Below, one piece after another: positions 1 to 57,490 of a stretch of 64,000 bases of DNA (its first letter is position 1; each line of letters begins with the position of its first letter). Below the pieces are notes generated by a model, which saw only the letters and a list, made by a program, of their open reading frames with translations, ran no database searches and was not told where the DNA came from. This stretch comes from Oscillospiraceae bacterium (GTDB lineage Bacteria > Bacillota > Clostridia > Oscillospirales > Acutalibacteraceae): positions 1,915-65,914 of the forward strand of contig SVPJ01000005.1 in the NCBI GenBank assembly GCA_015065885.1, in the 5' to 3' direction. The translations under genes were made by a program, and so were the position numbers.

Positions 1-2852
1 TGCAATCGAAGTTGGAACTTGCCCGCACGCAGTACGATGCGGCGGGTGCGGATATCGACCGCGTGGAAGCAGAGACCGAAGAGATCGCCCGCGAAGCGCA
101 GGCTCTCGCGGTGCAGATGGACGAGATCCGCCGTGCCGCCGCCGCACTGGAAGAGGAGGCACTCCGCGCCGAAAGCGAAAGCGCGGTGTTGCGCAACGAC
201 ATCTTCCACCGCGGCGAGACCATCGAGCGGGTGCGGGAGGATATCCGCAAAGCGGAAGAAGGCCGCACGCAAATTGACGAAGAAGTGGCCCGTCACACGG
301 CGGGTATTGCCGAGGAACAGGCGAAGATCGAAGCGGCGCAAGCAGAGAGTCTCACGCTGTCCGAACAGATGGAAGCTCTCTCCCGCAGCAGTGAAGAGGT
401 CACGGGGCGGATGGATACCCTTTCTGCCGAAGCGGCGGCGTTGGCACTGGAACTTTCGGATATCCGTGTGAAACGGGTGTCGGGCGAGACGGCGCTGTCC
501 GAGATCACCATGCGTCTGTCGCAACTGACGGCGGGGGTCACCCTGCGCAGTGAGCAGGCGAAAGAGGCGGAAGCCGAGCGTGCCGCGTGTGAGAAAGACC
601 GCGCGGCGGTGGAGGAGACGCTGACTTCACTGCGCAACTCGCAAAAGGGTTACACCATGCGCCTTGAGGCGCGGCAGGAAAAGTCGCAGACGCTGAAAGA
701 AGAGGCGGATCGCTTAACGTTGGACGCCGAAGCGGCGGCGCGTCGCGTGAGTTTGCTCGAAGAGATGGAGCGCAATCTGGAAGGCTTTTCCGAAAGCGTG
801 AAAACGGTGGTGAAGCAGGCGGGACGCGGCATGCTTCGCGGTCTGCACGGCCCCGTTTCGGGTTTGGTACACGCCCAAAAGGAATATGCGTTGGCGGTGG
901 AAACGGCACTCGGTGCCGCAACACAGCACGTTATTTGTGACCGTGAGGAAGACGCCAAACGTGCCATCGCCTATTTGAAGGAGAATCGTGCGGGACGTGT
1001 GACCTTCTTGCCGATCGCTTCGATGAAAGGTACCCTCCTGACCGAAAAGGGGTTGGAGGACGAAGAAGGCTTTATCGGACTGGCGAGTGACCTTGTGACC
1101 TGTGATAAGCAGTACGAGGAGATCGCCCGCAGTCTCTTGGGGCGCATCGCGGTGGTGGAGGACCTCGACCGCGCGGTGGAGATCGCCCGCAAATACAAAT
1201 ATCGGTTCCGTTTGGTGACACTGGACGGTCAGGTCATCAACGCGGGCGGCTCGATGACGGGCGGCTCGTCGGTGCGCTCGGCAGGCTTGCTGTCCCGCCG
1301 TGCGGAGATCGAACAGTTGAAGACGAAGGCGGAGAAACAAAAAGCCGCCGCCGCCGAAGCGCGGGAAAAGGCGCAAAAGGCGTTGCAGGAGACCGCGGCG
1401 GTGGAAGCCGAAGTGAACGGTCTGGCGGCAGAAATTTCTGTTGCACAGGAAGACGCGATCCGTCTGGACGGCGAGTTGCGCCGTTTGACGGAACTTTCGG
1501 AAAACAGCCGTCGCGAGGCGGAAAATGCCGCCCGCGAAGTTGAACAGTTGAACACCCGCGCCGCCGAACAGCGTGCCGCGATGGAGGGCGCCGAAAAAAC
1601 GGCAGCGGCCATCACCGAAAAGCAGGCGGCACTTGAAGCGCAGATGGCAGAGATCAGCGGCGGCCGTCAGCAGTTGTCGGATGAGCGCGAAGTGCTTGCG
1701 ACGCGTATCGGCGACGTGAAACTGGCGATCCTTTCCCACCGCAAGGAGATCGAGGCGCACGAGGCGGCGATTGCCGATCTGCGTGCCCGCGAAGCGGATT
1801 CGAGCGGATACCGCGAGGGATTGGAAGCACAGATCGCCGCGATCGAAGCGCAAAACGCCGAGACCGAACAGCGTATTGAAGAACTTGCCGCCCGCGCCGC
1901 CGCCCTGCGTGAGCAGGCGAAGGCAGGACTTGGCGAGATCGAAACGTTGATGCAGCGCCGCGACGAAGGCGAACAGCGGCAGACCGAATGCCGCCGGCTG
2001 GCGCGTGAAAAGAGCGACGAGCGCGAGCAGGCGGGTCGTGAAGTGGCGCGTCTGGAAGAAAAGGTGGAGACCGCCTCCCACGAAGCGGAAGACATCGTGC
2101 GCAAACTCTACGACGAATATGAGCTGACCCGCGCCGAAGCGGAACTGGAAGCACCGCCCATTGAAGAGCCTGCCAAAGCGGGCCGTCGTTTGGGCGAACT
2201 CAAGTCCAAGATCCGCGCACTCGGCAACGTCAACGTGGCGGCTATTGAGGAATACCGCGAGGTGAGCGAGCGGTACAACTTCATGTCCGAACAGGTGCGT
2301 GACGTGGAAGTGTCGAAGGAAGAACTGCTGAAACTGATCGGTGACCTTACCTCGCAGATGCGGGATATCTTCGTGGAACGCTTCCGCCAGATCAACCAGA
2401 ACTTCAGCGAGACCTTTACCGAACTGTTCGGCGGCGGTCAGGCGAAACTGGAATTGGCCGACCCGAACGACATTCTGCATTCGGGCATCGAAATGCACGT
2501 GCAGCCCCCCGGCAAAAAGATCCTGAATCTGGACTCCCTCTCGGGCGGCGAAAAGGCGCTGGTTGCCATTGCTTTGTTGTTTGCTATCTTGCACGTGACC
2601 CCCTCGCCCTTCTGCGTGCTGGACGAAATTGAGGCGGCACTCGACGACGTGAACGTGGACCGTTACGCGTCCTATCTGCGCCGTATGTGCGACAAGACGC
2701 AGTTTATCGTCATCACCCACCGTCGCGGCTCGATGGAAGAGGCGGACGTGCTGTACGGTGTGACGATGCAGGAAAAGGGCGTGTCCAAACTGCTCGAACT
2801 GCGCGCAAGCGAAGTGGAGCAAAAACTCGGTATTTCCCTGCAGCAACAGTAA
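1..2852 (+). CDS. smc: Chromosome partition protein Smc, C-terminal part (5' end upstream of window)
   Basis: ORF is open to the window start. Long Ala/Glu/Arg coiled-coil segments, a hinge-like block (GLHGPVSGLVHAQKEYALAVETALGAA...RVTFLPI) and a C-terminal ABC signature LSGGEKALVAIALLFAI plus Walker B FCVLDEIEAALD. Confidence 0.92.
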   Translation, partial: QSKLELARTQYDAAGADIDRVEAETEEIAREAQALAVQMDEIRRAAAALEEEALRAESESAVLRNDIFHRGETIERVREDIRKAEEGRTQIDEEVARHTAGIAEEQAKIEAAQAESLTLSEQMEALSRSSEEVTGRMDTLSAEAAALALELSDIRVKRVSGETALSEITMRLSQLTAGVTLRSEQAKEAEAERAACEKDRAAVEETLTSLRNSQKGYTMRLEARQEKSQTLKEEADRLTLDAEAAARRVSLLEEMERNLEGFSESVKTVVKQAGRGMLRGLHGPVSGLVHAQKEYALAVETALGAATQHVICDREEDAKRAIAYLKENRAGRVTFLPIASMKGTLLTEKGLEDEEGFIGLASDLVTCDKQYEEIARSLLGRIAVVEDLDRAVEIARKYKYRFRLVTLDGQVINAGGSMTGGSSVRSAGLLSRRAEIEQLKTKAEKQKAAAAEAREKAQKALQETAAVEAEVNGLAAEISVAQEDAIRLDGELRRLTELSENSRREAENAAREVEQLNTRAAEQRAAMEGAEKTAAAITEKQAALEAQMAEISGGRQQLSDEREVLATRIGDVKLAILSHRKEIEAHEAAIADLRAREADSSGYREGLEAQIAAIEAQNAETEQRIEELAARAAALREQAKAGLGEIETLMQRRDEGEQRQTECRRLAREKSDEREQAGREVARLEEKVETASHEAEDIVRKLYDEYELTRAEAELEAPPIEEPAKAGRRLGELKSKIRALGNVNVAAIEEYREVSERYNFMSEQVRDVEVSKEELLKLIGDLTSQMRDIFVERFRQINQNFSETFTELFGGGQAKLELADPNDILHSGIEMHVQPPGKKILNLDSLSGGEKALVAIALLFAILHVTPSPFCVLDEIEAALDDVNVDRYASYLRRMCDKTQFIVITHRRGSMEEADVLYGVTMQEKGVSKLLELRASEVEQKLGISLQQQ

Positions 2853-2864
2853 GGAGACTATACA

Positions 2865-3776
2865 ATGGGATTTTTCCAAAAGATCAAACAAGGTTTACAG
2901 AAAACGCGGGATTCGCTGATGAATCCGCTCAATTCCCTGTTTCGTTCCTTCACCAAAATTGACGAGGAACTGTTCGAGGAACTGGAAGAGATCCTCATTA
3001 TGGGGGATGTCGGCGCGAACACCGCCGCGCACATTTGTGAGCGACTGCGTGCCCGCGTGAAGGAAACGGGTACCACCGACCCTGCCGCCGTGCGCGATCT
3101 GCTGTCGGAGATCGTCAGCGATATGCTCGCGGGCGGGCAGGAGATGCAGATGAACACCCGTCCCTCCGTCGTGCTGGTCATCGGCGTGAACGGCGTGGGC
3201 AAGACCACCACCATCGGTAAACTCGCGGCGCGCTACCGTGCCGAAGGCAAAAAGGTGGTGCTCGCGGCGGCGGATACCTTCCGTGCCGCGGCGATTGAAC
3301 AACTCGAAATTTGGGCGGACCGTGCAGGCGCCGATTTTGTACACCACGCGGAAGGGTCCGACCCGGCGGCGGTGGTGTTCGACGCCATCGGTGCCGCGAA
3401 AGCCCGCGGTGCGGATATCGTCATTTGCGATACGGCAGGGCGGTTGCACAACAAGAAAAATCTGATGGACGAGTTGTCCAAAATTGCCCGTGTGATCGAC
3501 CGTGAGTTGCCGGGCGCGGACAAGGAAGTGTTGCTCGTGCTGGATGCCACCACCGGTCAAAACGCCGTGAATCAGGCGCGTGAGTTCAAAAACGCGGCGG
3601 GTATCACGGGTATCGTGCTGACCAAACTGGACGGCACGGCACGCGGCGGCGTGGTGCTTGCCATCCGCGAGGATCTGGACGTTCCCGTGAAATTCATCGG
3701 TGTCGGTGAAGGGGTGGACGACCTGCAACCGTTCGACCCCGCGGAGTTTACGAAAGGACTGTTCGAGACGGAATGA
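2865..3776 (+). CDS. ftsY: Signal recognition particle receptor FtsY
   Basis: SRP-GTPase motifs GVNGVGKTTTIGKLA, DTAGRL and TKLDGTARGG; no M-domain. AAGGAGA RBS upstream; classic smc-ftsY synteny. Confidence 0.92.
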   Translation: MGFFQKIKQGLQKTRDSLMNPLNSLFRSFTKIDEELFEELEEILIMGDVGANTAAHICERLRARVKETGTTDPAAVRDLLSEIVSDMLAGGQEMQMNTRPSVVLVIGVNGVGKTTTIGKLAARYRAEGKKVVLAAADTFRAAAIEQLEIWADRAGADFVHHAEGSDPAAVVFDAIGAAKARGADIVICDTAGRLHNKKNLMDELSKIARVIDRELPGADKEVLLVLDATTGQNAVNQAREFKNAAGITGIVLTKLDGTARGGVVLAIREDLDVPVKFIGVGEGVDDLQPFDPAEFTKGLFETE

Positions 3777-9976: not shown

Positions 9977-10153
9977 ATGTCAGAAGTCAAGGTCAAAGAA
10001 AACGAAAGCTTGGACAGTGCTCTTCGCAGATGGAAGAAGTCCTGCGCTCGCGCGGGTACGCTCGCTGAAGTCCGCAAGAGAGAGCACTATGAAAAGCCTT
10101 CTGTCCGACGCAAGAAGAAGTCGGAGGCTGCACGCAAGAGAAAGTTCAAATAA
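9977..10153 (+). CDS. rpsU: 30S ribosomal protein S21
   Basis: 58-aa ORF below the ORF-track cutoff: [67 protein letters not shown] upstream. Confidence 0.9.
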
Positions 10154-10167
10154 GCGTATGCATCCGC

Positions 10168-10201
10168 AAACGGGATAGAAGTCAACTTCTATCCCGTTTT
10201 T
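10168..10201 (+). terminator. Rho-independent terminator after rpsU
   Basis: Stem AACGGGATAGAAG / CTTCTATCCCGTT followed by a T-run. Confidence 0.75.
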
Positions 10202-10212
10202 CATTGTAGGAG

Positions 10213-10716
10213 GTGTCCGATATGGGGCTGTTTCGGCCGACGGTGCGGTATCGCCGTATTACAGATATTACGATAGACGATCTGCAACGTATGGCGGTGC
10301 AGGGCATTTTGTTGGACGTGGATAACACCCTCACCACGCACTATTGTCCCGACTTGTCGGACGAAGTGGCCCAGTGGCTTCGCACCGTGCAGGCGGCGGG
10401 TGTGAAACTTACCGTCGTGTCCAACGCCAAACGCTACCGTGTAGAGCCGTTTGCCGCAAAGATCGGGCTTTCCTGCGTATGGCTCGCGGCAAAACCCTTG
10501 CCTTTCGGTTTTTGGCGGGGAATGCGCCGTCTGGGTGTCGGTCGGCGGCACTGCCTTGCCATCGGCGATCAAACCTTTACCGACACGCTGGGTGCCAAAC
10601 TCGCGGGGGTGCGGGTGGTGCAACTGGAACCCATACAACTCGAAGAAGATAAGCCGTTTATGATGTGTAAACGGCGGATCGAAGCATATATACTGAAAAA
10701 GGAGGCACGGCGATGA
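10213..10716 (+). CDS. yqeG: YqeG-family HAD-IIIA phosphatase
   Basis: HAD motif I LLDVDNTL, then VVSNA and AIGDQTFTD. Start may be the ATG at 10222 instead of the GTG at 10213. Confidence 0.75.
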   Translation: MSDMGLFRPTVRYRRITDITIDDLQRMAVQGILLDVDNTLTTHYCPDLSDEVAQWLRTVQAAGVKLTVVSNAKRYRVEPFAAKIGLSCVWLAAKPLPFGFWRGMRRLGVGRRHCLAIGDQTFTDTLGAKLAGVRVVQLEPIQLEEDKPFMMCKRRIEAYILKKEARR

Positions 10717-18981: not shown

Positions 18982-19452
18982 ATGAGTAGTGAAAGAAAAA
19001 TTCCTGAACACTTAAAGCATAAGCCACTGTATGTGATCAGCGGTTACGAAAAAATGGACAGCGAATACAAAGATGGCGAAACCGATGTTGTCGGCTTGTC
19101 TGTCGGTAAAGCGCAGTGGGATGCCGAAAAAGTCATTCCCAGTGTCAAAGTGTGGCGGTATAAAACCCGTTGGTCTCGTCAAAGCGAGGAAACGACGTTT
19201 ACCCGTGCGTTGGATATGGCAACGTTGGTCATTAAGGTGTTGGACAAGCATTACAACGGGCAGGAACTCGAACCGATAACCGTAAACGGCATTTACAAAC
19301 CGGTGAAACAATACGAAGGATATACACAGGCGGATATCGCGGCGTTCGATGCCTACTTACAAGAGCATAAGGACGACATCGGTGCCCATCTGGAACTGTT
19401 GCAAACGGCGATCCGCTCATACTGTGAAAATTCTCTTGTGAAAAAGGCGTAA
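18982..19452 (+). CDS. Hypothetical protein (156 aa), inside the low-GC islet
   Basis: Clean ORF with ATG start and no recognisable motif. AT-rich like the 3' end of the upstream gene. Confidence 0.6.
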   Translation: MSSERKIPEHLKHKPLYVISGYEKMDSEYKDGETDVVGLSVGKAQWDAEKVIPSVKVWRYKTRWSRQSEETTFTRALDMATLVIKVLDKHYNGQELEPITVNGIYKPVKQYEGYTQADIAAFDAYLQEHKDDIGAHLELLQTAIRSYCENSLVKKA

Positions 19453-19575: not shown

Positions 19576-19829
19576 GGGACGTCGAGGGCGCCGTCCCCTA
19601 CCGCATAACACGAATCGTGCGGTAGGGGCGGCAATCTGCCGCCCGCATTACGACCTCTCCGTCACGGCTACGCCGTGCCACCTCTCCTTGAAAGGAGAGG
19701 CAAGGGGTGGGGCGCCCGCTACGGGTACGTGGTCGGTCGTGGGACGGACGCGCCATGCGCGCCCCTACCGTGTGCCCGCGAAAAAGCGAGGCGGATTTGG
19801 CACGGACGGGTCGGGAGACCCGTCCCTAC
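19576..19829. repeat. Cluster of REP-like GTAG-flanked hairpins (BIME-like)
   Basis: 19576-19601 (minus) reads GTAGGGGACGGCGCCCTCGACGTCCC. 19622-19644 (plus) reads GTAGGGGCGGCAATCTGCCGCCC. 19741-19768 (minus) reads GTAGGGGCGCGCATGGCGCGTCCGTCCC. 19804-19829 (minus) reads GTAGGGACGGGTCTCCCGACCCGTCC. There is a short GTAGCGGGCGCCCC at 19709-19722 (minus), plus extra hairpins at 19663-19677 and 19681-19700. Confidence 0.75.
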
Positions 19830-19886: not shown

Positions 19887-19942
19887 ACATTCATCGACAA
19901 AAAGTGAGATGATGTGTGATGGCGCTCGGACGGCGCAAAAAT

Positions 19943-21298
19943 ATGGATATGACGGTGGGCAGTGTGCCCAAAAACATACTGCTGTTTGCCTTTCCGCTGT
20001 TGCTCGGCAACCTGTTTCAGCAACTCTACAATATGGTGGACACCTGGGTCATCGGGCAGACGGGGCAGACGGGTGCCTATGCCGCGGTGGGCAGTATCGG
20101 CCCTGTCATTAATATTCTGATCGGCTTCTTTTTGGGCCTTTCCAGCGGCGCGGGGGTGGTCATCTCCCAGTATTTCGGTGCGAAAAAAGAGCACGAGGTG
20201 CGCCGTGCGGTACACACCGCCGTGGCGATGACACTGATTATGGGTGTGCTGTTCACCGCGCTCGGCTTGTGGCTGGCGCCCTACATTCTGCGCTTGATGT
20301 TAAACGGTGAGCAGTCGGTAGAGGTGTATCCCTTTGCCAAGACCTATCTCACCATCTATTTTGCGGGAGTGATGGGGCTGATGGTGTACAACATCGGTGC
20401 GGGCATTCTCCGCGCGGTGGGGGATTCCCGCCGTCCGTTCTACTTCCTCGTGGTGTCGGCTGTGTTGAACATCGTGCTCGACCTCGTTTTTGTATTTGGA
20501 TTCGAAATGGGGGTGGCGGGTGTGGCACTGGCCACCGTGATCGCGCAAACCGTGTCCGCGGTGCTGACGGTCATCACCCTTTTACGCACTTCGCTGTGCG
20601 TGCAGGTGCGGGTGCGGGACATCCGTATCGACCGCGAAATGCTTGGCAAAATTGTGAAAGTCGGCATTCCTGCAGCGTTGCAGATGGCGATCACGGCGTT
20701 CTCCAACGTGTTCGTGCAGTCGTACATCGCAAACGTCAACGGCGACCAAACGGCATGTCTCGGCGGCTGGACGACCTATTCCAAGGTGGATATGTTCATC
20801 TTTATGCCGGTGCAGTCGATCGCGTTGGCGGTGACCACGTTTGTGGGACAGAATTTGGGATGCGGGCAGGTCAAACGTGCCAAGAAAGGCACGTTCACCG
20901 CGTTTTTAATGGCGCTTGGTGCGACGGTGGCGGTGATCGCGCTTGTCATGGCACTGGCCGCGCCGCTCGCCCGCATCTTTAACCCCGATCCGTTGGTGGT
21001 GCATTACGCGACCCTGCTCCTTCACACGCTGACCCCGTTTTATGTACTGTGCTGTGTGAACCAGATCTTTTCGGCAGCCTTGCGCGGGGCGGGGGATACC
21101 CGCGCACCGATGATCATTATGCTGTCCTCCTTCGTGGCGTTTCGGCAGGTGTATTTGTTCGTGATGTCGAATTACATTTCCAACGAGATATTGCCGCTCG
21201 GTATGAGTTATCCCGCGGGATGGTTGCTGTGTGCGATATTGACGGTGGTGTATTACCTGCGTTGTGATTTCAGCCGCAACCGCGTGGTGGAAGAATAA
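19943..21298 (+). CDS. MATE family efflux transporter
   Basis: 12-TM protein with the typical MATE N-terminus (VPKNILLFAFPLLLGNLFQQLYNMVDTWVIGQ) and a second-half repeat. ATG at 19943 is preferred over the GTG at 19916. Confidence 0.85.
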   Translation: MDMTVGSVPKNILLFAFPLLLGNLFQQLYNMVDTWVIGQTGQTGAYAAVGSIGPVINILIGFFLGLSSGAGVVISQYFGAKKEHEVRRAVHTAVAMTLIMGVLFTALGLWLAPYILRLMLNGEQSVEVYPFAKTYLTIYFAGVMGLMVYNIGAGILRAVGDSRRPFYFLVVSAVLNIVLDLVFVFGFEMGVAGVALATVIAQTVSAVLTVITLLRTSLCVQVRVRDIRIDREMLGKIVKVGIPAALQMAITAFSNVFVQSYIANVNGDQTACLGGWTTYSKVDMFIFMPVQSIALAVTTFVGQNLGCGQVKRAKKGTFTAFLMALGATVAVIALVMALAAPLARIFNPDPLVVHYATLLLHTLTPFYVLCCVNQIFSAALRGAGDTRAPMIIMLSSFVAFRQVYLFVMSNYISNEILPLGMSYPAGWLLCAILTVVYYLRCDFSRNRVVEE

Positions 21299-21308
21299 GG
21301 AACAAGAA

Positions 21309-21340
21309 AGGACTTCAGCTCGTGCTGAAGTCCTTTGTTT
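21309..21340. terminator. Bidirectional terminator between the convergent MATE and RAYT genes
   Basis: Stem AGGACTTCAGC / GCTGAAGTCCT, loop TCGT, then TTGTTT. Confidence 0.7.
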
Positions 21341-21346
21341 GTGGGG

Positions 21347-21802
21347 TCAGTCGGTAAAAAAGCAATCCGATTTCCATCGCAGTGGGTTTTGCTCTATATA
21401 ATTCCAAATGTTTGCGTAGTCGCGTTCGTTACGTATGATGTGATCGTGGAAAGAACGTTGAAAGAGCGGTTTGCCGATCTCTTTCGAGACCAAAGTCTTT
21501 ATCGATCGCACTACTGTCGAAACCGAATGTGTAGGGGGCGATGCCCACATCGCCCCGTCCCCTAATTTTATAAGCAAATGGATGTGGTTGGGCATAATTA
21601 CGTATTTTTCAACCTCTGCGGCGGAGCGTAAATACTTTTCAACTACCATGCCGTAAGGTTTCGGGACGATGTGGGCATCGTCCCCTACGATATCACATAG
21701 CAGTTTTTCTTTGCTTTTTACACAGATCGTCACAAAATAGTAACCGATAGTTTTGTAATCGTATCCCTTGCACCGAAGGGATTTTCGCTTTGGTAGTTCC
21801 AT
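21347..21802 (-). CDS. REP-associated tyrosine transposase (RAYT) / IS200-like Y1 HUH transposase homologue
   Basis: 151 aa with HUH motif (PNHIHLLIK) and a C-terminal Tyr helix (DYANIWNYIEQNP). No TnpB partner. Starts 3 nt after the SGNH gene stop. Confidence 0.8.
   Translation of the reverse strand: MELPKRKSLRCKGYDYKTIGYYFVTICVKSKEKLLCDIVGDDAHIVPKPYGMVVEKYLRSAAEVEKYVIMPNHIHLLIKLGDGAMWASPPTHSVSTVVRSIKTLVSKEIGKPLFQRSFHDHIIRNERDYANIWNYIEQNPLRWKSDCFFTD
21531..21688. repeat. Inverted pair of 26-nt REP-like hairpins inside the RAYT coding sequence
   Basis: 21531-21556 (plus) is GTAGGGGGCGATGCCCACATCGCCCC. The reverse complement of 21663-21688 is GTAGGGGACGATGCCCACATCGTCCC. Each has a 9-bp stem and 4-nt loop. 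The only two differences are the two partners of one base pair. Confidence 0.85.
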
Positions 21803-24313: not shown

Positions 24314-24358
24314 AAAAACGAACAAATTTTCGATTTTTCCGAAAATTTGTTCGTTTTT
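24314..24358 (-). terminator. Rho-independent terminator after the zinc-ribbon membrane protein gene
   Basis: AAACGAACAAATTTTCG / CGAAAATTTGTTCGTTT stem with flanking A/T runs. Confidence 0.7.
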
Positions 24359-27649: not shown

Positions 27650-27741
27650 GGAGAGATGGCTGAGCTGGTCGAAGGCGCACGATTGGAAATCGTGTAACGG
27701 CTATAAACCGTTCGGGGGTTCGAATCCCCCTCTCTCCGCCA
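27650..27741 (+). tRNA. tRNA-Ser (anticodon GGA), CCA encoded
   Basis: Acceptor GGAGAGA/TCTCTCC, anticodon stem CACGA/TCGTG with loop TTGGAAA, a long variable arm (class II), T-arm GGGGGTTCGAATCCCCC, and a GCCA end. Confidence 0.9.
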
Positions 27742-27744
27742 AAC

Positions 27745-27783
27745 AAAAGAACACACCCCAACGGGGTGTGTTCTTTTGTTTTT
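27745..27783 (+). terminator. Rho-independent terminator after tRNA-Ser
   Basis: 13-bp stem AAGAACACACCCC / GGGGTGTGTTCTT, loop AAC, T-rich tail. Confidence 0.8.
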
Positions 27784-32568: not shown

Positions 32569-32619
32569 AAAAGAGGCTTTTCATAGGCTCGGGTTGATCC
32601 TATGAAAAGCCTCTTTTTT
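32569..32619. terminator. Orphan bidirectional terminator-like hairpin between divergent genes
   Basis: 16-bp stem AGAGGCTTTTCATAGG / CCTATGAAAAGCCTCT, with an A-run on the left and T-run on the right. Confidence 0.6.
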
Positions 32620-57199: not shown

Positions 57200-57490
57200 G
57201 AAATTGCCCCCAGACTTAGAAATTTCGACCTGCCTCAGAGCGAAAAACGCCCTGCTCTACAGCAGAAAACCGGTTTTCACCGGATCAAGAAGAAACGCTT
57301 ACAACGATTTTCTCCTTGAGGAAAAGCGGAAAACAAACGGCTTGTCCGCTCTTCCTCAAAGTGAAAAACGTGCAACAACGCACACGATACCGGTGTGCGT
57401 TTTGCGTATCACCGTAATCTTGCCGAGCACTGCACCAAGGCAGTGCTCGGCAAGACGGTTAGGTTTTAACGATTAGAATACACAGGAGAA
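57200..57490 (-). other. Hairpin-rich 291-nt intercistronic region between oppA and oppB
   Basis: 15-bp hairpin at 57419-57454 (CTTGCCGAGCACTGC / GCAGTGCTCGGCAAG) and an 8-bp hairpin at 57378-57400, with further stems upstream. None has a canonical U-tract. Confidence 0.55.

Follow-up and report, generated by a model that had tools for sequence, protein, structure and literature searches.

An inverted pair of REP hairpins is dual-coded inside the reading frame of a clostridial RAYT gene

We analyzed a 64,000-nucleotide stretch of an Oscillospiraceae genome (GenBank assembly GCA_015065885.1, contig SVPJ01000005.1, positions 1,915 to 65,914 of the forward strand; hereafter "the window"), in which a gene for a 151-amino-acid protein contains two short hairpins, E1 and E2, inside its open reading frame (ORF). 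Judged by profiles and predicted fold, the gene product is a protein of the RAYT (REP-associated tyrosine transposase) or TnpAREP type with an HUH-Y1 domain, REP standing for repetitive extragenic palindrome. An earlier note on this DNA had called the gene a RAYT, and the assignment holds: The closest solved structure is 4ER8, the E. coli TnpAREP with bound REP, both by sequence (profile built from 41 homologues, E 8.3e-9) and as the top fold match of an AlphaFold2 model (E 9.5e-8, TMq 0.60; mean pLDDT of the model, 83). The ORF scores 25.5 bits against Pfam Y1_Tnp, above the cut-off of 23, and 69.5 bits against NCBIfam REP_Tyr_transpos, under that model's cut-off of 80; on these scores the protein is related to, yet outside, this curated equivalog, which is built around other TnpAREP subclasses. 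H73, I74, and H75 of the HUH motif (in PNHIH, residues 71-75) and Y135, I136, N139, and P140 of the tyrosine motif YIEQNP show no variation in our homologue alignment (A1), and the gene is apparently intact.

The tyrosine motif has the form Y---NP, which Table 1 of Quentin, Siguier, Chandler and Fichant (2018, BMC Genomics 19:475; PMC6006769) defines as the motif of class-2 TnpAREP proteins. Residues Q115, D120, H121, and R124 align with Q95, E100, H101, and R104 of E. coli TnpAREP, which contact GTAG according to the same paper, and they are conserved in the homologues. Judged by the tabulated motifs and not by subclass hidden Markov models, the protein looks like TnpAREP subclass 2.4 (Bertels group 4), for which PMC6006769 gives NH[IFV]H as the HuH motif, WQ as the W motif, and YIxNNP as the Y motif. 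The window protein matches with NHIH and has FQ in place of WQ (WQ being present in many homologues); its Y motif, YIEQNP, corresponds to YIDxNP or YIENNP in homologues.

The earlier note had described two 26-nt elements within the coding sequence, each built of a GTAG foot, a 9-bp stem, and a 4-nt loop, and their coordinates, strands, and frames (Table 1) are confirmed. The sequence likewise bears out that positions 8 and 23, which form a base pair with one another, are the sole differences between the two (G-C in one, A-T in the other). They lie inverted with their feet outwards and enclose 106 nt that code for helix 49-60 and the HUH strand. Their DNA folding energies are -11.9 kcal/mol (z = -5.6) and -10.6 kcal/mol (z = -5.4), and in 200 shuffles not one fold was as good as either; when up to three mismatches were allowed, the 22-nt hairpin was found in the 64-kb window just at these two sites, with 0.00 occurrences expected. 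E1 is translated as VGDDAHIVP (residues 39-47), upstream of the HUH motif, and E2 as GAMWASPPT (residues 83-91), directly after the HUH strand and before helix 94-109.

Table 1. Features of the RAYT locus, in coordinates of the window
Feature	Position	Strand	Basis
RAYT/TnpAREP-like HUH-Y1 gene, 151 aa	21347..21802	-	ORF list, profiles, fold
E1, in-gene REP, GTAGGGGACGATGCCCACATCGTCCC; GTAG foot, 9-bp stem, and 4-nt loop on the coding strand	21663..21688	-	
E2, in-gene REP, GTAGGGGGCGATGCCCACATCGCCCC; the coding strand shows hairpin plus CTAC	21531..21556	+	
E1-E2 module, feet-out REP doublet (GTAG-hairpin ... hairpin-CTAC on either strand)	21531..21688	.	
HUH motif codons, H73-I74-H75	21578..21586	-	read from sequence
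Tyrosine motif, Y135-I-E-Q-N-P140 (class-2 TnpAREP signature Y---NP)	21383..21400	-	sequence
13-bp-stem hairpin between the RAYT gene and the convergent MATE-like gene (19916-21298, +)	21307..21336	.	hairpin list, sequence
Intergenic cluster, four GTAG-foot REPs of three or four other sequence types	19576..19829	.	hairpin list
Cluster REP, GTAGGGGACGGCGCCCTCGACGTCCC	19576-19601	-	
Cluster REP	19622-19644	+	
Cluster REP, degenerate	19741-19768	-	
Cluster REP	19804-19829	-	

The inverted pair also leaves its mark on the opposite strand. An antisense ORF of 61 amino acids (21471-21656, +) spans the module and reads VGGDAHIAP, and a tblastn search with the RAYT protein matches the gene's own opposite strand (E 1e-4); both follow from the inversion of the two REPs and do not point to a gene there.

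A protein search returned 4638 relatives, and genomic loci were taken from 80 species-level genomes (80 loci and 1.24 Mb in total; mostly Oscillospiraceae, Acutalibacteraceae, and other Clostridia; 36-57% protein identity). From these we extracted 85 coding sequences, 86 with the window gene; L-numbers in the following are labels of genomic loci or metagenome stretches. When each complete coding sequence is scanned for stable 24-nt windows, the best two fall at the alignment columns of E1 and E2 in 75 of the 86 genes; the median RNA energies of the best two are -15 and -13 kcal/mol, against a background of -0.7 kcal/mol. A hairpin with GTAGG and a perfect stem occupies site 1 in 69 genes, site 2 in 75, and both sites in 65. 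The feet-out geometry is found in 65 of the 86, with spacers of 106-181 nt (median 142), and the two elements are of equal length in every such gene (65/65; 26, 24, or 23 nt), while element length differs in 39% of between-gene pairs. Identity between E1 and E2 inside one gene amounts to 0.916, versus 0.713 between genes of equal element length.

Site 1 is read in a single frame throughout (69/69; GTA GGG, Val-Gly) and site 2 in two (59 genes ending in ..PT, 16 in ..PL), and subfamilies carry wholly different peptides at both sites that are still reverse-complement translations of one another: VGDDAHIVP/GTMWASSPT, VGGGALDAP/GTSRAPSPT, VGTGVLDCP/GPSGTPVPT, VGAIIDRP/GRSMIAPT, VGQGLAPA/AGASPCPT, VGEGLCALP/GGHGNPPLQ, and VGAIHESP/RAIRESPLQ. 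The layout is no chance palindrome; within this RAYT subclass, it is shared by the majority of a large clade of Clostridia. Among the 86 genes, both elements are missing only in L064, L072, and L072_2; the other exceptions are mostly single mismatches or pseudogenes, and genes with decayed hairpins are few, the obvious pseudogenes L040 and L042 among them. Farther out, a Leptolinea homologue (L203) has no internal REP and seven flanking GTAGGGG hairpins, and two Bacteroidota homologues (L201 and L202) have none; the absence of internal REPs in these distant homologues is presumed to be the ancestral state.

Two further arrangements were observed in the family. L064 (Acetobacterium fimetarium; 1-260 and 2650-3560) lacks internal REPs and has flanking arrays of one REP type at a spacing of ~65-80 bp, and L072 (5600-6600) likewise has a flanking array of one REP type, with 150-bp spacing, and no internal REPs; the two are classical REPtrons inside the same protein family. 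Elsewhere, extra or tandem REPs stand in frame at the E2 site (L001/P0098, L062, L076, and P0025): The L076 coding sequence (10001-10606) has three REP-derived repeats there (GPSRTPAPTRETGTGPSGTPAPTREAGTGPSGTPAPT...), P0025 has GAMWASPPT twice, L001 an additional VGADTLIRP element of another REP type, and L062 a further REP of opposite orientation. REPs seem to land preferentially in the loop that follows the HUH motif.

Three tests that involve no pre-selection of hairpins bear on the level at which the elements are constrained: the scan for stable windows in the 86 genes described above, codon identity in nine genes, and residue pairs in the 120 closest homologues, chosen by whole-protein similarity. 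In the nine genes, which share VGDDAHIVP and whose proteins are 59% identical, invariant residues with degenerate codons show a codon identity of 0.95 within the elements and of 0.48 in the rest of the gene, and the only codons that vary inside the elements are those whose third base lies beyond the 26 nt. Of the 120 closest homologues, 112 contain VGDDAHIVP, and the E2 peptide takes the form G-x-MWAS-y-PT, with x/y being T/S in 58 cases, S/T in 32, A/P in 10, P/A in 10, R/A in 4, L/T in 2, and T/P in 1. Read with the codons xCG...yCC, these residue pairs amount to all four of the Watson-Crick pairs at a single position of the stem, besides one wobble form and one break.

Across 61 distinct 26-nt elements, the GTAG foot and the first two G-C pairs are without variation, and three stem pairs show all four Watson-Crick types and no unpaired cell, a count that is partly circular. 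When E1 is compared with E2 within a gene, the feet differ at 0 of 260 positions, the stems at 7%, and the loops at 17%; between close homologues, E1 is fixed and E2 changes its base pair. Because loops diverge more than stems, and because E1 is fixed while E2 varies, the conserved unit appears to be the local hairpin. The same observations argue against, as a selected structure, the long E1:E2 RNA helix that is predicted as the most stable fold of the 178-nt segment (-73.9 kcal/mol, z = -6.7). REP-type elements that keep their hairpin potential by covariation had been proposed for the window gene, and this proves true across the family: In the homologues the peptides change, E2 occurs in two frames, and the stems still pair, and the opposite outcome of kept peptides with lost stems was not seen. 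It is well shown that the 26 nt are dual-coding and are constrained as DNA (or RNA) structure, not as peptide alone.

We further found the same sequence with no RAYT gene nearby. Scanning metagenome contigs for the exact E1 26-mer gave at least 120 stretches with at least 125 copies among the matches listed, and at least 122 of these copies had no RAYT homologue in the fetched stretch; since classing the copies as genic or intergenic by mechanical ORFs is unreliable in GC-rich DNA, the claim is limited to "no RAYT nearby." The 26-mer is dispersed in both orientations. It forms an array in L185 and extragenic feet-out doublets of identical 26-mers in L135 and L175, with spacers of 25 and 55 nt that, in a comparison by eye only, bear no likeness to the spacer of the gene. 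Within the 1.24 Mb of loci there are 270 hairpins with GTAGG and a stem of at least 6 bp, of which 149 lie inside RAYT genes and 121 outside; the latter often adjoin the RAYT and are identical or near-identical to its in-gene element (L004, L032, L036, L059, L065, L071, L073, L075, and L079). In overall resemblance the extragenic REPs show no clear bias (seven closer to E2, seven to E1, two ties), and where E1 and E2 differ, all four exact extragenic matches are to E2. The hexamer GTAGGG by itself shows no enrichment in the window, with 18 occurrences against 15.4 expected. On these sequence comparisons, the two hairpins are well shown to be true copies of the cognate REP of this RAYT, whose nucleotides at the same time encode a predicted beta-hairpin and a predicted disordered loop.

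An intergenic cluster with the same hairpin grammar had been reported ~1.5 kb from the RAYT gene. The cluster is real and consists of GTAG-foot hairpins, but its REPs are of other sequence types and none is of the in-gene type. Its first element is identical to the in-gene element of the RAYTs in L028, L044, L073, and L075; therefore several families of REPs probably exist in the host genome, perhaps along with additional RAYT paralogues beyond the window. The first two cluster elements face each other feet-in as an extended inverted repeat, CCCCTACCGCA...TGCGGTAGGGG. The window itself contains no second RAYT homologue over its 64 kb, nor a RAYT remnant near the cluster, so that the gene is single-copy there.

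In the AlphaFold2 model, the two peptides occupy different kinds of structure. The E2 peptide connects the HuH strand with helix 94-109 as a loop of low confidence, its pLDDT at residues 83-89 being below 50. The E1 peptide contributes the turn and the second strand to a beta-hairpin (E36-39/E44-47) that is modeled with confidence, at pLDDT above 90. The E2 site corresponds to the beta3:alphaC loop, in which PMC6006769 locates REP insertions. Where relatives lack the REPs, the turn at site 1 (IVNGEMV in Leptolinea, for instance) and the loop at site 2 are both shorter; the two elements are therefore best seen as additions at permissive surface sites. If E1 is under protein and DNA constraint and E2 under DNA constraint only, this would fit the near-invariant E1 and the base-pair-switching E2 of close homologues.

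A few loci show rearrangements that begin or end at the feet of the elements. In L004 (2379-2557), a solo copy of the module extends exactly from GTAG foot to CTAC foot; it lies 27 nt downstream of the RAYT stop codon, with a terminator directly behind it, and hardly differs from the in-gene module except for the loss of the 21 nt that encode MPNHIHM. In L053 (10004), a RAYT copy starts exactly at the E1 foot and adjoins an unrelated terminator; in L003 (8600-9050), a RAYT remnant starting at E1 is fused to an array of tandem 62-bp units with one REP each; and in L083 (reverse strand, first 330 nt), a remnant starts at E2 and keeps only the downstream part. Either enzyme action at the feet or REP-REP recombination could account for these breakpoints and tandem REPs, and neither is proved by them. 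For the idea that genomic REPs were seeded from the gene, the L004 copy is a single suggestive case. We also considered an invertible on/off switch that works through the 26-bp inverted repeats and rejected it, as the middle segment never lies on the opposite strand in the 86 genes and the other tblastn hits, and as in the window an inverted module would meet a stop codon (that of ORF 21471-21656).

We consider it fairly probable that the gene harbors an in-gene doublet of cognate REPs that is kept because its own enzyme recognizes the sites. Under this account, REPs with a GTAGGG foot and a short perfect hairpin would have been built into the ORF at two places that lie on the protein surface, namely a beta-hairpin tip upstream of the HUH motif (E1) and a disordered loop that directly follows the HUH strand (E2), yielding a feet-out doublet with the geometry of the extragenic doublets and with the HUH-encoding segment in the place of the spacer. 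The constraint would arise as the encoded enzyme recognizes the in-gene sites in the way of extragenic REPs, as GTAG foot plus stem-loop in single-stranded DNA, which is the most economical reading of the constraint. The gene would then be a REPtron folded into itself, in which an undeletable REP pair keeps enzyme and substrate together and can act as seed or target for further REP copies, possibly also as a cis binding site with feedback on expression. E1 would additionally be held by protein structure, and E2 would be free to follow the REP population.

Several points weigh against this account. The window has no extragenic copy of the gene's own REP type in its 64 kb, only the two in-gene copies, and in many relatives the 10-20 kb loci likewise contain no own-type extragenic REPs; across ~200 loci, the L004 module copy is the only one. 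Both the covariation count at three stem pairs and the count of stem compensations draw on elements pre-selected by perfect stems, which makes them partly circular. A homology model in PMC6006769 places the insertion loop off the DNA-binding face, and given this the peptides themselves need not matter. For the ~27 base-pair switches at E2 that are described below, recurrent overwriting out of a polymorphic pool of REPs is no worse an explanation than selection in place. Lastly, we infer the reason for the constraint from sequence patterns, and the functional step entirely so.

A bolder form of the account takes the in-gene pair as a working substrate and the 456-bp gene as a complete, self-contained REP-RAYT replicator, whose enzyme would bind or cut its own coding DNA at E1 and E2, seed or renew the dispersed REPs, and be throttled by the same interaction; we hold this to be possible rather than probable. 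If true, enzyme specificity and repeat sequence would be physically locked together by dual coding. The interpretation of the earlier note is supported in part: the type of gene, the REP nature of the elements, and the covariation hold, whereas no single one of the three origins or roles that it had offered (autoregulation or self-recognition, tolerated insertions in surface loops, and seeding of the genomic REPs from the gene) is established.

The main rival is that REPs inserted as passengers at two permissive sites of the gene that lies nearest to a cis-acting enzyme, were tolerated there, and owe their intactness to re-insertion or gene conversion from the dispersed pool, which would overwrite them repeatedly. 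This is essentially the published reading, in which in-frame REPs between HuH and Y are peripheral and probably neutral (PMC6006769), and the positions of E1 in a beta-turn and of E2 in a disordered loop suit it. So do the homologues without internal REPs (L203, L201/L202, and L064/L072), some of them classical REPtrons with flanking REPs, the piling up of tandem REPs at E2 (L001, L062, and L076), and the fact that the four exact extragenic matches are all to E2 where E1 differs. On a shallow tree of 119 close homologues, moreover, the E2 base pair switches ~27 times (54 for shuffled states) with almost no intermediates, a pattern that favors some copy-and-paste at E2.

Nevertheless, we judge this rival rather unlikely. 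Occupancy of both sites stands at ~90% in a clade whose proteins have diverged to 36% identity, E1 keeps to one frame in 69 of 69 genes, the two elements are always equal in length, and the E1 nucleotides are invariant down to the wobble bases in genes whose proteins are 59% identical. Pure neutrality predicts presence/absence polymorphism and decay; neither was seen, and the few genes with decayed hairpins include the obvious pseudogenes. Tolerated insertion, in short, fits the origin of the elements in a beta-turn and a disordered loop but leaves the frozen synonymous sites and the fixed pairing unexplained.

It is improbable that the hairpins act as an RNA-level element independent of the RAYT, which would slow ribosomes, protect the transcript from RNase or invite it, or form an E1:E2 stem, and thereby keep nuclease expression low, the likeness to REPs being secondary. 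The hairpins are indeed stable as RNA too, as the median energies given above show, and the long helix is predicted for the 178-nt transcript segment. A generic RNA hairpin, however, would not need the foot, and because the GTAG foot is invariant an RNA-only role is less likely; the greater variation of loops than of stems runs contrary to selection for the long helix, and this very 26-mer recurs, in both orientations, as a dispersed repeat of genomic DNA. To mere coincidence, with VGDDAHIVP and GxMWASxPT kept for protein reasons and the palindromes a by-product, we give next to no credence: Few stretches are as well conserved in close homologues as the two peptides, and E1 lies in a confident beta-hairpin, yet conservation for the protein only is refuted by the frozen wobble bases, the two frames of E2, and the differing peptide pairs of subfamilies that are again reverse-complement translations, besides which the residue pairs obey Watson-Crick rules and the 26-mer occurs at least 122 times away from any RAYT.

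The gene is bordered on one side by the terminator-like hairpin of Table 1, which is probably a terminator shared by the convergent MATE-like and RAYT genes, and on the other by the neighboring gene; sequence and hairpin list show no REP flanking it on either side. The closest precedent is TnpAREP subclass 2.4, to which, according to PMC6006769, REPs in frame inside the gene are unique; there the insertions vary in length and sequence and lie generally between HuH and Y, in the beta3:alphaC loop, and its authors regard them as peripheral and probably without effect. The window gene shares with that subclass the HuH motif NH[IFV]H, the class-2 Y---NP, the GTAG-foot REPs, and the non-disrupting REPs at the E2 site; it differs in having no flanking REPs, which are present in the sample of PMC6006769, mainly from Cyanobacteria and Bacteroidetes.

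The core of the finding, in-frame REPs in RAYTs of subclass 2.4, is thus already published. The text sections and legends of that paper mention no second site upstream of HuH and no fixed inverted (feet-out) pairing, although Figure S10 might show an upstream REP; nor do they mention equal length or concerted type of the elements, compensatory change, frozen synonymous sites, or clostridial genes with an internal pair alone. Measured against them, three points are new: that a second REP site lies upstream of HUH, that the pair has a fixed geometry, and that constraint acts at the level of DNA, with covariation.

Other systems are more distant. With the E. coli REPtron TnpAREP (YafM; 4ER8; PMC3333891, PMC8266576), the window gene shares a REP hairpin with a 5' GTAG foot, conserved residues at the aligned GTAG contacts, and the genetic linkage of enzyme and repeats, but the E. 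coli REPs (REP/BIME sequences) flank the gene, are long, and need a bulge for recognition, whereas here short perfect 9-bp hairpins stand inside the ORF. The E. coli enzyme cleaves between C and T, 5' or 3' of the REP (PMC3333891, PMC8266576). REPIN-RAYT systems (Bertels and Rainey; PMC5581495) also have two inverted REPs able to form a long hairpin and a single-copy RAYT tied to a dispersed repeat family; REPINs are, however, extragenic with short spacers, whereas here the spacer consists of 106-181 nt of essential coding sequence including the HUH motif, and the conserved unit appears to be the local hairpin and not the long one. A REPIN has a short non-coding spacer and replicates as a unit; the window module has a 106-nt coding spacer, and one copied module was found (L004).

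The IS200/IS605 family shares the HUH-Y1 fold, hairpins with an adjacent 5' tetranucleotide, and breakpoints at hairpin feet, as in L004, L053, and L003. It differs in its Y motif, which in IS200 is Y---Q and in the window RAYT Y---NP, and in that the insertion-sequence hairpins are subterminal and flank the transposase gene, are recognized on the same strand, and belong to multicopy elements, none of which is the case here. Membership in IS200/IS605 is rejected on the Y---NP motif, on the lack of flanking hairpins other than the probable terminator, and on the single copy in the window.

REP-RAYT systems are among the most abundant and least understood bacterial repeat systems, and two questions about them are still debated: how an enzyme and its repeats remain matched in the long term, and whether REPs are moved by RAYTs at all. 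A large gut-clostridial clade that keeps a REP doublet, under clear constraint on its nucleotides, inside the enzyme's own ORF offers a compact, testable system, with enzyme and substrate in 456 bp. It is also a natural case of dual coding in which Watson-Crick covariation becomes visible as amino-acid covariation, and it accounts for unusual peptides that recur in annotated and hypothetical proteins, among them VGDDAHIVP, GTMWASSPT, and GRAIRESPLQ. Should the elements be mere passengers, the finding shrinks to a well-documented extension of the 2018 description.

Some other hairpins of the window are unlike the REPs. No RNA family reaches its gathering score between positions 19300 and 22000. 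A perfect 19-bp inverted repeat with a 7-nt loop (AAAAACGAACAAATTTTCG; 24314-24358) lies in an AT-rich gap between ORFs and may be a terminator or an operator. Four other long perfect hairpins, with stems of 14-19 bp (27741-27781, 32569-32617, 10168-10199, and 57418-57455), lack a GTAG foot and mostly have the A- or T-runs typical of intrinsic terminators.

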